This document shows, piece after piece, positions 1 to 4,153 of a stretch of 4,153 nt of DNA (positions are counted from its first letter, which is position 1; the number at the start of each line of letters is the position of its first letter). The DNA comes from a virus (Duplodnaviria > Heunggongvirae > Uroviricota > Caudoviricetes), in the IMG/VR virus record IMGVR_UViG_2703718873_000011, positions 1 through 4,153 of that record; one strand, written 5' to 3'. The position numbers were made by a program, and so were the translations under genes. A model generated the notes under the pieces. That model was given only the letters and a program-made list of their open reading frames with translations, did not search any database and had not been told where the DNA came from.

Positions 1-1
1 C

Positions 2-277
2 CTGTTCATTGACGAAATGGCGCATCCGTTACAGCCGGTTCGTCTGTCCGGTGATGAACTTCACGGAGAAGATCCATATTACGTCCTGTACGTCACGCCG
101 CGTCAGTGGAATGACTGGTACACCTCGACGTCCGGTAAGGACTGGAACCAGATGATGGTTCGGGCCGTGAACCGTGCAAAAGGTTTTAATCATCCGCTGT
201 TCAAAGGTGAATGTGCGATGTGGCGCAATATCCTGGTTCGTAAGTATGCGGGTATTATAGCGCGGCGATTTTTTTGA
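2..277 (+). CDS. hypothetical protein, C-terminal fragment (5' end outside window)
   Basis: The frame is open from position 2 (codons L-F-I-D-E precede the ATG at 17 with no in-frame stop) to TGA at 275-277. Codon usage looks E. coli-like (CGT/CTG/CCG-rich). It converges on mom and is followed by a stem-loop at 313-347. No family recognised from sequence alone. Confidence 0.45.
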   Translation: MFIDEMAHPLQPVRLSGDELHGEDPYYVLYVTPRQWNDWYTSTSGKDWNQMMVRAVNRAKGFNHPLFKGECAMWRNILVRKYAGIIARRFF

Positions 278-338
278 TACCGATTTGCATTTCATTTGAT
301 ACCGCTGAAAAACGCCGATACGCAACTTATTTGATACT
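273..338. repeat. Four GATAC-core direct repeats in the intergenic region (TTTGATACC at 273-281 and 295-303, CCGATAC at 314-320, TTTGATAC at 330-337)
   Basis: Seen directly in sequence; spacings between GATAC cores are 22, 18 and 17 bp. The first copy overlaps the stop codon of the left-edge CDS. Function unknown (possible protein-binding sites). Confidence 0.3.
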
Positions 339-347
339 AAATCGGCG
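313..347. terminator. Putative bidirectional terminator-like stem-loop between convergent genes
   Basis: CGCCGAT (313-319) is the exact reverse complement of ATCGGCG (341-347), giving a 7-bp stem. It is flanked by A5 (308-312) upstream and CTTTTCTTTT (348-357) downstream, so a U-tract follows the stem on either strand. The 21-nt loop is longer than in canonical intrinsic terminators, hence low confidence. Confidence 0.3.
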
Positions 348-383
348 CTTTTCTTTTGAGTTTTAGAATGAGTTTTTAAGCGC

Positions 384-1121
384 TCATTCACTCTCTTTCA
401 AACCAGTTTTAACTGTTTGTGGTTTTGGGTAAGGCTGGACTTTGAATAGCTTTGTGTTGAGGCGTTTTCTGGCCCTCTTGTTCAGAAACCGGATGTAACG
501 AAACTGTCGGAACTTATGCACACTGGCTCTGTCGATATTAGCCCTCAGATGTTCACCTCGTTGTCCGCCTCGTTTAATGGCACTCCTGCAAATCTCGTGA
601 TACCACTCGCCATCAAGTTCATAGAATGTTGATTCATGGCTGCCTACATAATCAAAATTGCTTGCCTGATACACGACACCAAGACAGCCACAACGCTCAT
701 CTGCAAACGACTGAACCCACTGTACCTGCGGATAAAGCTGCCTGATTAGCTTGAGCGCGTAACTGATTGCCCTTGATTCGGAGTTTCTCGGCATACAGTC
801 ATGCATCCATAGCCGGTTAAGCTCCATATATTCTCGGTTCTGCGTACCCGTTACGACGCGTGCACCACTGTTTGGGTTAAGGGCGTAACCCCATTGCATT
901 ACGCCAACAAGTTCCCGTTCTGAAAATATACCCAGATGAAGGTAGGAATTATTTACGAAACGGTGGCTGTAATGTTTATTGACGATAACCAGTCTGGCCA
1001 GCCAGCAACTTATTGTCTCAACCCGCAACTCACGGGAGCCATAACCAACGATATTGTCGTTATAGCGAATAAGTTCAGGCGTGCTGATGATACGGGATGT
1101 GACTTGCTTTCTGTTCCCCAC
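384..1121 (-). CDS. mom: Mom-like DNA modification protein (phage Mu Mom family, adenine-modifying, GNAT-like)
   Basis: 245-aa ORF immediately downstream of, and overlapping by 47 nt, a Com-like zinc-finger gene, which is the com-mom operon architecture of phage Mu. Size is close to Mu Mom (about 231 aa). GTG start at 1121-1119 preceded by AAGGAAA 8 nt upstream. The family call rests mainly on context and size; I cannot verify residue-level identity to Mom without a search. Confidence 0.6.
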
Positions 1122-1275
1122 GACAGGATTTCCTTGTGTATGTGGGGTGCTCTGTGGCGCTCGGAGATGTGATTTGATTGAGGGTTTTACAGCGCGGACA
1201 TTTTACTTCCAGATAACTGAAACTGGCCCGTGCCAGTAGCTTATTGCAGTGTCGGCACCGTATGTTTCGATACAT
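1075..1275 (-). CDS. com: Com-like zinc-finger translational activator of mom
   Basis: 66-aa product [30 protein letters not shown]... with C-x2-C at residues 7/10 and C-x2-C at 26/29, matching the phage Mu Com pattern (IRCxxCNKLL ... CPRCK) as I recall it. ATG at 1275-1273 preceded by AGGAGG with 10-nt spacing. TGA stop at 1077-1075 lies inside mom. The TTG at 1320 that opens the track ORF is probably not the real start. Confidence 0.7.
1116..1147 (-). promoter_or_regulatory. Stem-loop sequestering the mom GTG start codon and RBS (candidate translation-inhibitory structure)
   Basis: On the minus-strand mRNA, CCCCAC (from 1147-1142) pairs with GUGGGG (1121-1116), where GUG is the mom start codon. 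The 20-nt loop carries the AAGGAAA Shine-Dalgarno and can form an inner stem (ACAAGG/CCUGU). Complementarity verified by eye; stability not computed. Confidence 0.4.
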
Positions 1276-1320
1276 GGCCGCATAACCTCCTGCTTTGTTG
1301 TTGATGCCTTTCTCATGCAA

Positions 1321-1341
1321 TCGATCGACAAAAACGATCGA
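1321..1341. promoter_or_regulatory. Paired palindromic Dam sites (TCGATCGA ... CGATCGAT) upstream of com
   Basis: GATC at 1323-1326 and 1336-1339, each within a CGATCG palindrome, separated by ACAAAAA; 48-64 bp upstream of the com ATG. Read as analogous to the Dam/OxyR-controlled GATC sites upstream of Mu Pmom, but this is inference. Confidence 0.3.
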
Positions 1342-1440
1342 TTCGATTTGTTTAATTGATACAACAAATAGATTTAAAAGTCATCAACAATGATTCAGGG
1401 CGGTGATTATTTACTTAAAGAAACGAAGAGTTAGGTGGTG

Positions 1441-1462
1441 AAAACGATCATAAAATGATCAT
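1441..1462. promoter_or_regulatory. Second pair of GATC sites in a near-symmetric AT-rich element (AAAACGATCATAAAATGATCATTTT)
   Basis: GATC at 1445-1448 and 1456-1459 within a GATCAT direct repeat flanked by A4/T4; a further GATC at 1492-1495. All in the com / zinc-ribbon intergenic region. Confidence 0.25.
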
Positions 1463-1504
1463 TTTATTGACTTTTTATACAGTGAAGGTAGGATCGCGCG
1501 TATA

Positions 1505-1573
1505 TGTAGTATGTTTCAAATCAACAGGATACTACATAAAAGGGAAACCCAGCATAGCTGGAACTATGCTGGG
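1505..1573 (-). terminator. Tandem perfect hairpins; on the minus strand the second is followed by a U-rich tract (terminator or insulator candidate, alternatively a structured sRNA or operator)
   Basis: Hairpin A: TGTAGTAT (1505-1512) / ATACTACA (1529-1536), 8-bp stem with 16-nt loop. Hairpin B: CCCAGCATAG (1548-1557) / CTATGCTGGG (1564-1573), perfect 10-bp stem with 6-nt loop. On the minus strand hairpin B is followed by UUUCCCUUUUAUG (complement of 1535-1547). Confidence 0.35.
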
Positions 1574-1681
1574 TCAATCTGTAAAAACTTGCATCAATGC
1601 TTTACTTCGAGCTCGTGGCGTATCCTATGATATTCCCCGGTCTCCTGTAAAGCAGAGATGCATAAAAAGGAGATCTTTATC

Positions 1682-1852
1682 ATGGATAAAGAGCCTGTTT
1701 GCCCTGCCTGTAAGACTCCCTTACAGCTCATCTATCGCCGTTCTCGATCTCAAAATGGCAAGACATACAAACCAAAAAATGCTTCCTGTTTCAGGATGCT
1801 GATATGTCCGGCCTGTTCTCCCCGGAGGGAAAATACACAAAACGTGCATTAA
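1682..1852 (+). CDS. Small zinc-ribbon protein (56 aa), putative DNA/RNA-binding regulator
   Basis: ATG at 1682 preceded by AAGGAG (1667-1672) with 9-nt spacing. Product MDKEPVCPACKTPLQLIYRRSRSQNGKTYKPKNASCFRMLICPACSP... has C-x2-C at 7/10 and C-x2-C at 42/45, plus Cys36. Stop TAA at 1850-1852. Transcribed divergently from com. The track ORF at 1658 starts 8 codons earlier with no RBS. Confidence 0.5.
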   Translation: MDKEPVCPACKTPLQLIYRRSRSQNGKTYKPKNASCFRMLICPACSPRRENTQNVH

Positions 1853-1861
1853 CAAATTCAC

Positions 1862-1881
1862 CCGGCAGGGAAACCTGCCGG
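1862..1881. terminator. Putative bidirectional terminator hairpin between convergent genes
   Basis: CCGGCAGG (1862-1869) + GAAA loop + CCTGCCGG (1874-1881), a perfect 8-bp GC-rich stem with tetraloop. It lies 10 nt after the zinc-ribbon stop on plus and 10 nt after the 81-aa ORF stop on minus. Downstream tracts are moderately U-rich on both strands (UCGGUAUUGUU / GUGAAUUUGUU). Confidence 0.45.
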
Positions 1882-1890
1882 TCGGTATTG

Positions 1891-2136
1891 TTACATCATA
1901 GTACCGTCAGTTCCGGGTTGAACCGGCTCTGGTTGCTCTACGGGTTGAGGCTCATTTTCCGTGCTGTTTTCAGCCGGAGAACGACCAACCATTCGGGCCA
2001 GCACTTCATCAACATATGCGTCGATTTGTGCCTCAAAATCCTTGCGAACCTGCGCCTTCAGCACGCGGTTCACTTCTTCAGAATAAAGTGCCTGTTTGAC
2101 AAGCTCTTCAGTAACCGTGCCTTTAATCTCTGGCAT
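1891..2136 (-). CDS. hypothetical small acidic protein (81 aa)
   Basis: ATG at 2136-2134 preceded by AAGGAG with 7-nt spacing; TAA stop at 1893-1891. The N-terminal 50 aa look helical and amphipathic; the C-terminal 30 aa are Pro/Glu/Gln-rich (PQPVEQPEPVQP) and likely disordered. No family recognised. Confidence 0.6.
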   Translation of the reverse strand: MPEIKGTVTEELVKQALYSEEVNRVLKAQVRKDFEAQIDAYVDEVLARMVGRSPAENSTENEPQPVEQPEPVQPGTDGTMM

Positions 2137-2171
2137 GAATATTCTCCTTTCCTTTTCTGGTTCACAAAAAA

Positions 2172-2351
2172 TTAAATCTGACCGGAGTCTTTCGGCTGCG
2201 GCATTACAGCACCGCTTTTTATCTTTTCCTCGGCAGCTGCATCAATTTTATTTCGAAAATAATTGCGAATAATTTTATAACCACCGCTGACAAGCAACAG
2301 ACAACAAACCACCGTGCAGAAATACAGCAGGCAGACGTTTATATATGTCAT
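2172..2351 (-). CDS. Small single-pass membrane peptide (59 aa), not in the supplied ORF track
   Basis: My own translation of the minus strand: ATG at 2351-2349, TAA at 2174-2172, product MTYINVCLLYFCTVVCCLLLVSGGYKIIRNYFRNKIDAAAEEKIKSGAVMPQPKDSGQI. One Cys-rich hydrophobic segment of about 22 residues is followed by a basic then acidic tail (positive-inside topology). GAGG lies 5 nt upstream of the ATG. It fills the otherwise empty 272-bp gap between the esterase gene and the 81-aa ORF. Confidence 0.4.
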   Translation of the reverse strand: MTYINVCLLYFCTVVCCLLLVSGGYKIIRNYFRNKIDAAAEEKIKSGAVMPQPKDSGQI

Positions 2352-2408
2352 ATAAGCCTCACTCTTATTAACTGATGTTACAGCCGGATAAATTCCCGGC
2401 CGTCACGA

Positions 2409-4153
2409 TTATGCCGCAGGGGTATTAACCTCAAGGACAACGCTCTCAAAAGACACGCCATAAGTTGCCCCTTTGGTGACATCTGTCAGTGTCAGCGTAT
2501 CTTTGGCAGGGGAAAGTGCATCTTTCACCATCTGGAATGCCTGGCCCGGAGTGCCATCCAGCACAGGCGTTACCTGGGCACTTCCCGCCGTAAACTTCAG
2601 GACAAGTGTATGCCACTGGTTATTGTAGGCTCCAAATGATCCCAGTTTCGTATTCCCCCCTGTTTTATGGTGCATCAGATTTAACTGGCCGCCTGTTGTC
2701 TGGAGATAATACGCCATCAGGAACGGTGTGCCTGTACCACTCATGGTTACACCTTCCGGGACCGTATCGGTGTGGAGGTAAATACCCAGAGCAAACTGGC
2801 CTTCTTTTACTTCACCTGACAGACGGAATTTACAGGTCAACTGACCACCATGCTTCAGAAGTTCACCGGCTGCATCAGTTCCATGGGTAAGCGTCCAGGT
2901 TTTTCCGCTTTGTTTGGATACGGTCAACGCTTTACCTTCGTCCGTCAGCTGGATTGTACCATCTGTAATTTTCCAGCCCTGAGCCGGGGCTTCTCCTGCT
3001 GATGCTTTAAGTGAAAGCAGCGTACGGAGTGACGGGGATGTCGGATGGGGGGACTCACTGCCTCCTGGCTGACTACCTGTCGGCGCTTCCGGTTTCCCAC
3101 CCGGCGCGGGCTGAGGCAGGGCTTCACCATCAGGGGCCACACCGGCAATAAATGCAGAGGTCAGACCTGCATATTTAAGAATTGCTGATGCAAAACGATC
3201 TGAGACCAGAAAACGGCGCGCCCAGGAGCTAAAATGGGTTGCCCTGGATGCTGTTGTCCAGTTGCCATCTCCCCGTGATTCCGCACCATAATACCCGGCA
3301 GAAGCGATATCCGGGTCGTGCTCCGGCAGGTTGGTCGCGGTTTTATTACCGAACTCATCGTGCATCAGTGGAACAAAGTGAATGTTCTCGGAAGCCCGGT
3401 TTTTATATCCGCTATAAATGGTTTCATATGCCGCCGGGTTCTTCTCTTTCCAGTCATAGGTTGTGTCACCACATAACCACGGCACACTGTCTGATGAACC
3501 ACCAATACACTGACCGGAGAAAGCACCAAGATCCGCACGGAATTTTTTCACCATCGCAGTAAACTGGGCACCATGCTGGGCCGGGGTCGCTTTAAGGTCT
3601 CCTTCCCCCTGAATCCATACGACAGATAACAGCACATTCTTTGGATTCGCCTCAAGTGCCGCTTTAGTTCGACTGACAAGATCCTGATACAGTGGGGTAT
3701 CCACTCCCCAGCGTAGTGACGCCTCGGCTGCACCACTTGCCGGATCGAATGAGCCAACTGCGCCGGTTGTAAAAGCAGAGCCGCCACGGGCACAGGGAAC
3801 CAGTAAAATCCCGGCATCAGCAGGAATCACCGGTAATACTTTTTTCGCAATATGAAGTCCCTGCCCCACACAACCATACTGCCCTTTTTTCAGGTCTGCT
3901 TTTGGATGGTTCAGCAGACTCATATTCTGAACATCATGAAGGCAGTGATCTGCTGGAATGATTTCATTGTATTTGCAGGGAATACCTCCGGGGGTTTGTG
4001 TATTCCTGCGTGCCAGCTGCATAATACGTGGATCAGGACGATCATAAGAATCCGGAAGGGGCAACCCTTCACCATAAGATGAAGCATTGGACTGGCCGGC
4101 TATAACAATCACGTAATACCAGGAAGGGGAGCTGGAAGCAGTTTCATTTCCTG
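2409..4153 (-). CDS. SGNH/SASA-family carbohydrate O-acetylesterase, prophage NanS-p-like (partial; N-terminus outside window), with C-terminal beta-rich putative carbohydrate-binding domain
   Basis: The frame stays open upstream of the GTG at 4112 to the window edge (…GNETASSSPSWYYVIVIAGQSNA…). The GQSN motif after a hydrophobic beta-strand is the block-I signature of SASA/DUF303 sialate O-acetylesterases. A Pro/Ser/Gly-rich linker (PQPAPGGKPEAPTGSQPGGSESPHPTSPS) precedes a C-terminal domain of about 200 aa. At least 581 aa are visible, consistent with prophage NanS-p proteins of roughly 645 aa that carry an extra N-terminal domain (from memory). TAA stop at 2411-2409. Confidence 0.8.
   Translation of the reverse strand, partial: GNETASSSPSWYYVIVIAGQSNASSYGEGLPLPDSYDRPDPRIMQLARRNTQTPGGIPCKYNEIIPADHCLHDVQNMSLLNHPKADLKKGQYGCVGQGLHIAKKVLPVIPADAGILLVPCARGGSAFTTGAVGSFDPASGAAEASLRWGVDTPLYQDLVSRTKAALEANPKNVLLSVVWIQGEGDLKATPAQHGAQFTAMVKKFRADLGAFSGQCIGGSSDSVPWLCGDTTYDWKEKNPAAYETIYSGYKNRASENIHFVPLMHDEFGNKTATNLPEHDPDIASAGYYGAESRGDGNWTTASRATHFSSWARRFLVSDRFASAILKYAGLTSAFIAGVAPDGEALPQPAPGGKPEAPTGSQPGGSESPHPTSPSLRTLLSLKASAGEAPAQGWKITDGTIQLTDEGKALTVSKQSGKTWTLTHGTDAAGELLKHGGQLTCKFRLSGEVKEGQFALGIYLHTDTVPEGVTMSGTGTPFLMAYYLQTTGGQLNLMHHKTGGNTKLGSFGAYNNQWHTLVLKFTAGSAQVTPVLDGTPGQAFQMVKDALSPAKDTLTLTDVTKGATYGVSFESVVLEVNTPAA

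Follow-up and report, generated by a model that had tools for sequence, protein, structure and literature searches.

Background

In bacteriophage Mu, the Com protein is treated as essential for the translation of mom (PMC3378877, PMC6483171). The GUG start codon of mom lies within the stem of a translation inhibition structure (TIS), which is melted by the binding of Com (PMC6483171). The motif recognised by Com, 5′-CC(N)2-3GAG-3′, was defined by SELEX and SHAPE, and in Mu, whose sequence is given as GAAUGCCUGCGAGCAUCCCACGGAG, it is presented in a hairpin adjoining the TIS (PMC6483171). Com homologues are also found ahead of the DNA-modification genes of other Mu-like prophages, which encode Com-linked DNA methyltransferases (FluMu Hin1523, Pnm1 Nma1821, Hia5 and phage B3 ORF47/48), and the 5′ ends of those genes were reported to contain possible Com sites (PMC3299994).

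In the Mu sequence AF083977, the annotated mom coding sequence starts at a GTG located in the 3′ arm of a CCCAC/GUGGG stem, with GGAG, annotated as the ribosome-binding site, in the 11-nt loop, and com ends 50 nt into mom. The layout is CC-UGC-GAG-CAU-CCCAC-(GGAG loop)-GUGGG. Here we describe the corresponding region of a Mu-like prophage, carried on a stretch of viral DNA of 4,153 nt (IMG/VR record IMGVR_UViG_2703718873_000011, positions 1 to 4,153), referred to below as the window.

Genomic setting of the com-mom segment

Bases 1-255 of the window share 99.6% identity with the major head gene found in Stx phages, among them 933W and VT2-Sakai. This similarity breaks off at 255; the remainder, from 256 onwards, represents the right end of a Mu-like prophage. 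Its terminal sequence, TATAGCGCGGCG..., matches the end annotated in LC727895 for the 'inserted Bacteriophage Mu-like phage'. We conclude that the host element is a Mu-like prophage of Shiga-toxin-producing E. coli. The com-mom segment itself was found in 233 of 5426 complete E. coli genomes. [quoted passage not shown] In other strains the Mu-like element sits in different genes, for example in an autotransporter gene in STEC799.

The gene order on the minus strand is a SASA/DUF6645 esterase (NanS-p-like, 4112-2409), DUF1378 (2351-2172), DUF826 (2136-1891), com and mom. The esterase together with DUF1378 and DUF826 is presumably typical of the region downstream of stx in lambdoid phages, and these genes, located just upstream of com, appear to be cargo swapped between phage types. 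Between DUF826 and com, the minus strand carries a strong terminator-like hairpin of 13 bp followed by a T tract (1537-1575), which would shield com-mom from read-through from the upstream genes. A short ORF, coding for 64 aa and containing two CxxC pairs, was found on the plus strand, in the opposite orientation to com (1658-1852), followed by a GC-rich palindrome, CCGGCAGGGAAACCTGCCGG, at 1861-1880; RefSeq labels the region of this ORF as a frameshifted hypothetical protein.

Upstream of com, at 1319-1343 on the minus strand, lies a conserved palindromic block, AATCGATCG-N7-CGATCGATT, which contains two GATC sites and aligns with the Dam/OxyR region of the mom promoter of Mu and with phage Chuche. 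The role of this block is taken from the Mu literature (PMC3378877). Mu has three GATC sites in the aligned block and the window two, and the window has about 26 nt fewer than Mu between the GATC pair and the ribosome-binding site of com; three more GATC sites are located at 1446-1495, within 170 nt of the block. Scanning of the sequence between the GATC block and the com ribosome-binding site revealed no sigma-70-like promoter, and no C site was identified. To judge by the sequence, the promoter layout may differ from that of Mu.

The com and mom genes

The com gene (1075-1275, minus strand, with its stop codon at 1077-1075) encodes a four-cysteine zinc ribbon of 66 aa that matches the Pfam family PF10122, Zn_ribbon_Com (2e-12), and is 44-46% identical to Com of Mu. 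In an alignment of nine Com proteins the four cysteines are invariant, as is the tetrapeptide E-H-P-T. A ribosome-binding site read from the sequence, AGGAGG (1286-1291), is located 10 nt ahead of the ATG at 1275 and aligns with GGAGG before com of Mu. The RefSeq product name of Com in an identical copy (L164:3820-4020) is 'Com family DNA-binding transcriptional regulator'. This name is misleading, as the literature shows Com to be an RNA-binding translational activator.

The mom gene (384-1121, minus strand) encodes a protein of 245 aa that matches PF25680, Mom (8.5e-77), and is 79% identical to Mom of Mu. Its GTG start (1121-1119) is the first start candidate of the Mom ORF past the upstream in-frame stop, and the N-terminus M-G-N-R-K that follows from it parallels the M-G-K-E-K of Mu Mom. 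The limits of both genes, including the GTG start of mom, are the same in the RefSeq annotation of the identical copy. The two genes overlap in different frames by 47 nt (1075-1121, minus strand), the last base of the com stop codon lying 46 nt past the first base of the mom GTG. The initial annotation had taken a non-AUG start and a longer com/mom overlap as departures from Mu. Neither is one, since Mu mom starts at GTG too (AF083977) and the 47 nt of the window compare with 50 nt in Mu.

The hairpin at the mom start codon

The mom GTG sits within the 3′ arm of a hairpin at 1116-1147 of the minus strand, referred to below as the TIS of the window, in which a 6-bp stem, CCCCAC (1147-1142)/GUGGGG (1121-1116), encloses a loop of 20 nt. 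The mom ribosome-binding site read from the sequence, AAGGAAA (1129-1135), is located in this loop with a spacing of 9 nt between AAGGA and GUG, and the com reading frame crosses the entire hairpin. An inner helix of the loop (1123-1137) pairs ACA-GG (1137-1132) with CC-UGU (1127-1123).

Folding of the 32-nt hairpin alone gave -11.5 kcal/mol (z = -2.07), which was equalled by 10 of 200 shuffled sequences; by itself, the energy of the TIS is only modestly unusual. In contexts of 91 and 101 nt the TIS helix was predicted in both, and the total energy was not unusual (z = -0.48 and -0.70). In a 291-nt context, all six TIS pairs formed at a probability of 0.98-0.99, with the GUG paired at 0.99-1.0. 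In the same context the GG of the ribosome-binding site (G1133, G1132) paired with CC (C1126, C1127) at 0.97-0.98; the ACA/UGU pairs of the inner helix reached only 0.29-0.58. The sequence of the inner helix is not conserved, and relatives use different inner pairings. The features from which the initial annotation had started, namely the CCCCAC/GUGGGG stem with the mom GTG in its 3′ arm, the AAGGAAA in the loop with extra inner pairing, and a com frame that runs through the structure and ends 46 nt beyond the mom start, are all present in the sequence, and the folding of the minus-strand transcript that it had proposed as a check predicts a stable helix over the start region in every context.

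Such a hairpin is not rare by chance. When the flanks were shuffled 20,000 times, a perfect 6-bp stem with the start codon in its 3′ arm arose in 3.7% of cases, and about 8% of the triplet positions of the window fall in an arm of some hairpin with a perfect 6-bp stem. Since chance hairpins are not negligible and the energy alone is insufficient, the case beyond chance rests on comparative evidence. A search of the whole window against Rfam (E<=1) gave no relevant family and two chance-level matches only; Rfam is without a curated model of the Com site or the TIS. A terminator or attenuator role for the hairpin was also considered and rejected: no U-tract follows GUGGGG, and the terminator scan listed no terminator there on the minus strand.

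Conservation of the start-codon hairpin

For comparison, 160 com loci were collected, taken from genomes as well as from viral contigs. The 11 distinct close copies of the window show 29 variable positions in 1275-1000, none of which falls in 1157-1116. The part of this block from 1157 to 1122 codes only for the Com tail, yet it is invariant among the close copies; the doubly coding 1115-1075 has 7 variable positions. The C-terminal tail of Com is disordered and dispensable for RNA binding (PMC6483171).

A wider alignment comprised 24 distinct enterobacterial sequences of the Mu, window, Salmonella/Citrobacter and Chuche types. All six pairs of the TIS helix form in 24 of the 24 sequences, and RNAalifold recovers the helix unguided. 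Five of the pairs never vary and the basal pair covaries (C-G in 16, U-A in 7 and U·G in 1), so that the direct covariation support for the TIS amounts to one pair and few evolutionary events. The complementary hexamers, whose conservation or covariation had been named at the outset as a check, are conserved and, at the basal pair, covary. Mu, Salmonella, Citrobacter and Chuche-type loci all have this helix at the corresponding position, although their Com proteins are 44-75% identical. The proline codon of E-H-P-T, which lies inside the CCCAC of the 5′ arm, is CCC in all 24 aligned relatives; in Acinetobacter and Neisseria, where the arm is elsewhere, the proline codon of E-H-P is CCG, CCA or CCC.

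The Com recognition motif and a putative Com-binding hairpin

Directly 5′ of the TIS, the window carries a predicted Com recognition motif, CC-ACA-GAG (1157-1150, minus strand), which matches 5′-CC(N)2-3GAG-3′. The window sequence corresponding to that of Mu is GAGCGCCACAGAGCACCCCAC. The motif is followed by CA and then by the 5′ arm of the TIS, which is the spacing of CC-UGC-GAG in Mu, and its CC and GAG are invariant in 24 of the 24 aligned relatives. Alignment with the Mu Com binding site, which had been suggested for this locus, places the motif where Mu has it, and together with the matching Mu layout this supports the original proposal of a Mu-type inhibitory stem-loop at the mom start. 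As the two proteins are only 44-46% identical, an RNA specificity of the window's Com like that of Mu Com is an assumption.

A putative Com-binding hairpin, GCGC (1160-1157)/GCAC (1150-1147) with the loop CACAGA (1147-1160, minus strand), is homologous to the AUGC/GCAU hairpin of Mu. Set in the homologous register, it can form three of the four pairs of the stem, since 1159 and 1148 face each other as a C·A mismatch, and folding gives it only -0.4 kcal/mol, with a core-pair probability of 0.22. Among the 24 sequences the outer pair covaries (G-C in 16, A-U in 6 and G·U in 2), and the second pair is broken in 15, the window among them. A natural variant (L100) with GUGC/GCAC has the full stem.

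One base is common to both hairpins: C1147 can form the outer pair of the Com hairpin by pairing with G1160 or, alternatively, the basal pair of the TIS by pairing with G1116. The Mu bases equivalent to 1147, 1160 and 1116 are U, A and A, and both alternative pairings covary. This sequence pattern hints that the two hairpins may compete for C1147.

Com loci of distant clades

Hairpins unrelated in sequence to that of the window were found at the start of the gene after com in distant clades, with z-scores of -1.5 to -3.9. The AUG is hidden in the 3′ arm in Haemophilus (GCCAUAG/CUAUGGC), in Neisseria (GCAUCC/GGAUGC) and in Snodgrassella (GCAUCG/CGAUGC), the last with a compensatory change relative to Neisseria. 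The ribosome-binding site is hidden in Acinetobacter (CUUACCUG/CAGGUAAG), and both the AUG and the ribosome-binding site are hidden in Methylophaga (GGCCAU/AUGGCC plus CCUCU/AGAGG). In a rough automated survey, 15 of the 33 sequence clusters had a start codon paired at a probability of 0.9 or more, versus 17% of shuffles; the automatic choice of the downstream start over 101 loci was noisy (L153 and L072 were mis-called), so that this count is rough and the curated clades are more reliable.

Among the clades whose start codon is paired, the majority have a com gene that extends 25-71 nt beyond the start of the next gene. Haemophilus is arranged differently: its com gene is already complete 16 nt ahead of the Com motif and 56 nt ahead of the AUG, which leaves the control region intergenic, and despite this earlier stop both the Com motif and the start-codon hairpin are kept. 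The published coordinates are 232-348 for comHia and 413-1255 for hia5 (PMC3299994). In Neisseria (L011, L013 and L071) and Snodgrassella (L019), the 3′ arm of the Com hairpin, GCAU, shares bases with the GCAUCC or GCAUCG that forms the 5′ arm of the start hairpin. As drawn from the sequence, the two structures are mutually exclusive there, a clearer switch design than that of Mu.

The genes after com were surveyed through 38 representatives, 29 of which encode Mom or DNA methyltransferases: 16 D12 m6A methyltransferases, 5 Mom, 5 N6/N4 methyltransferases and 3 C5 methyltransferases. This survey extends the report on FluMu, Pnm1 and B3 (PMC3299994). Among the closer relatives, LC727895 (L003:3155-4204), Citrobacter (L004:1655-2704), a further locus (L002:1343-2131) and Salmonella relatives retain com, the Com motif and CCCCAC/GUGGGG, and a C5 or other DNA methyltransferase replaces mom; the replacement is a C5 methyltransferase in LC727895 and in the Citrobacter and Salmonella relatives. 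The window and LC727895 diverge about 10 nt past the GUG, and the swap point therefore lies directly behind the control element. The Com residues past the TIS vary with the downstream gene, being RGEQETLLSV in LC727895 and different in the window.

Proposed mechanism and alternative explanations

We consider it very probable that the region 1160-1116 of the minus strand is the counterpart of the translational control region of Mu mom, that is, a TIS opened by Com. The anatomy, the homology to Mu and the conservation are seen in the sequences of the window and its relatives; Com binding, opening of the hairpin and Com-dependence of mom we infer from the experiments on Mu (PMC6483171, PMC3378877). 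With the mom GUG held in the 3′ arm of the TIS and the GG of the ribosome-binding site paired, 30S initiation would be blocked and the toxic Mom protein would not be made. Com, which would be translated from the same com-mom mRNA, would recognise CC-ACA-GAG (1157-1150) immediately 5′ of the TIS, and its binding would open the TIS and expose the ribosome-binding site and the GUG. Com binding alone might be insufficient to open the TIS of the window, as its predicted stability is well above that of Mu.

Two explanations deny the hairpin a function. That it covers the start codon by chance would fit the 3.7% of shuffles and the 8% of window positions that give such stems, and the non-significant z-scores of the folding contexts, but the recurrence of the same helix in Mu, Salmonella, Citrobacter and Chuche-type loci, with analogous hairpins in distant clades, makes this extremely improbable. 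The complementary hexamers might instead be a by-product of protein coding, one arm specifying E-H-P-T in Com and the other M-G in Mom, and have no RNA function. E-H-P-T is indeed invariant in the nine aligned Com proteins, and pure protein constraint could also give five of six stem pairs that never vary. Several observations nevertheless speak for constraint on the RNA: in the close copies, it is the tail-only-coding 1157-1122 that is invariant and the doubly coding 1115-1075 that varies; a four-fold degenerate proline codon is fixed as CCC in the stem and variable where the arm is elsewhere; the basal pair covaries; clades whose Com tails are unrelated sequester the start in other hairpins; and the TIS of Mu was probed experimentally (PMC6483171 and work cited there). 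We regard the coding explanation as very improbable.

An explanation of another kind accepts the hairpin and differs in what opens it. By translational coupling, alone or with Com, ribosomes translating com would unwind 1147-1116 in cis, and a 30S subunit would load at the mom start. The com frame does cross the whole TIS, as is true in most clades with a paired start codon, and a very stable TIS next to a weak Com hairpin makes a second opening force conceivable. Coupling by termination and reinitiation has against it the position of the com stop, which, at 47 nt downstream of the mom start, is beyond the reach of that process, and the Com residues past the TIS simply change with the following gene, as the window and LC727895 illustrate. 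Wulczyn et al. in 1989 and Hattman et al. in 1987 reportedly found Com to work when supplied in trans. Moreover, in the Mu literature translation of mom is regarded as requiring the Com protein (PMC3378877, PMC6483171), and coupling cannot be universal, because com of Haemophilus stops before the Com motif and the AUG (PMC3299994). Taken together, we think coupling unlikely. A combination confined to the clade of the window can also be imagined, in which Com would capture the base of the stem while com ribosomes melted the TIS in cis, forming an AND gate on a toxic gene. This two-input reading is suggested by a TIS far stabler than that of Mu, a paired ribosome-binding site, a degenerate Com hairpin and the sharing of C1147; we hold it to be quite unlikely. 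Opening of the TIS by Com, as in Mu, remains the explanation that we favour.

Implications

Judged from sequence and folding, the TIS of the window is real and, by strong homology, functional; it is already understood in principle, and the locus differs from Mu in that its TIS is stronger and its Com hairpin weaker. It is the known Mu switch in another prophage, without the novelties that had been claimed for it. The Mu-like prophages that are common in Shiga-toxin E. coli keep the full Mu safeguard on Mom, a result of little import beyond annotation. Across proteobacterial lineages, a hairpin with clade-specific arms usually contains the start region of the gene after com, whether this encodes Mom or a methyltransferase of one of three classes. 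The comparative survey supports the idea that Com and its RNA target form a portable switch of translation, and the clade-specific hairpins provide natural variants for studies of Com-RNA recognition.

Comparison with known systems

The closest system is that of Mu itself. The gene order, the overlapping frames and the positions of the GUG (3′ arm) and of the ribosome-binding site (loop) are the same in the window, as is the CC-NNN-GAG-CA directly 5′ of the stem at identical spacing. The differences are as follows: the window has six G-C-rich pairs, with a basal C-G where Mu has U-A; its loop is 20 nt versus 11 nt in Mu, and its inner helix pairs the GG of the ribosome-binding site; the predicted stability of the TIS is -11.5 versus -6.8 kcal/mol in Mu; and in the Com-site hairpin the U-A of Mu is replaced by a C·A mismatch.

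The window also resembles the FluMu, Pnm1, Hia5 and B3 loci in having a Com homologue ahead of a DNA-modification gene, but it encodes a true Mom where those loci encode methyltransferases. The control region of Haemophilus is intergenic, whereas that of the window lies inside com.

A more distant likeness is to the RNA phages, in which translational coupling works through the unfolding by ribosomes of an inhibitory hairpin between genes. As there, an upstream frame in the window crosses the structure that hides a downstream start; unlike there, the activator of the Mu system is a dedicated RNA-binding protein.
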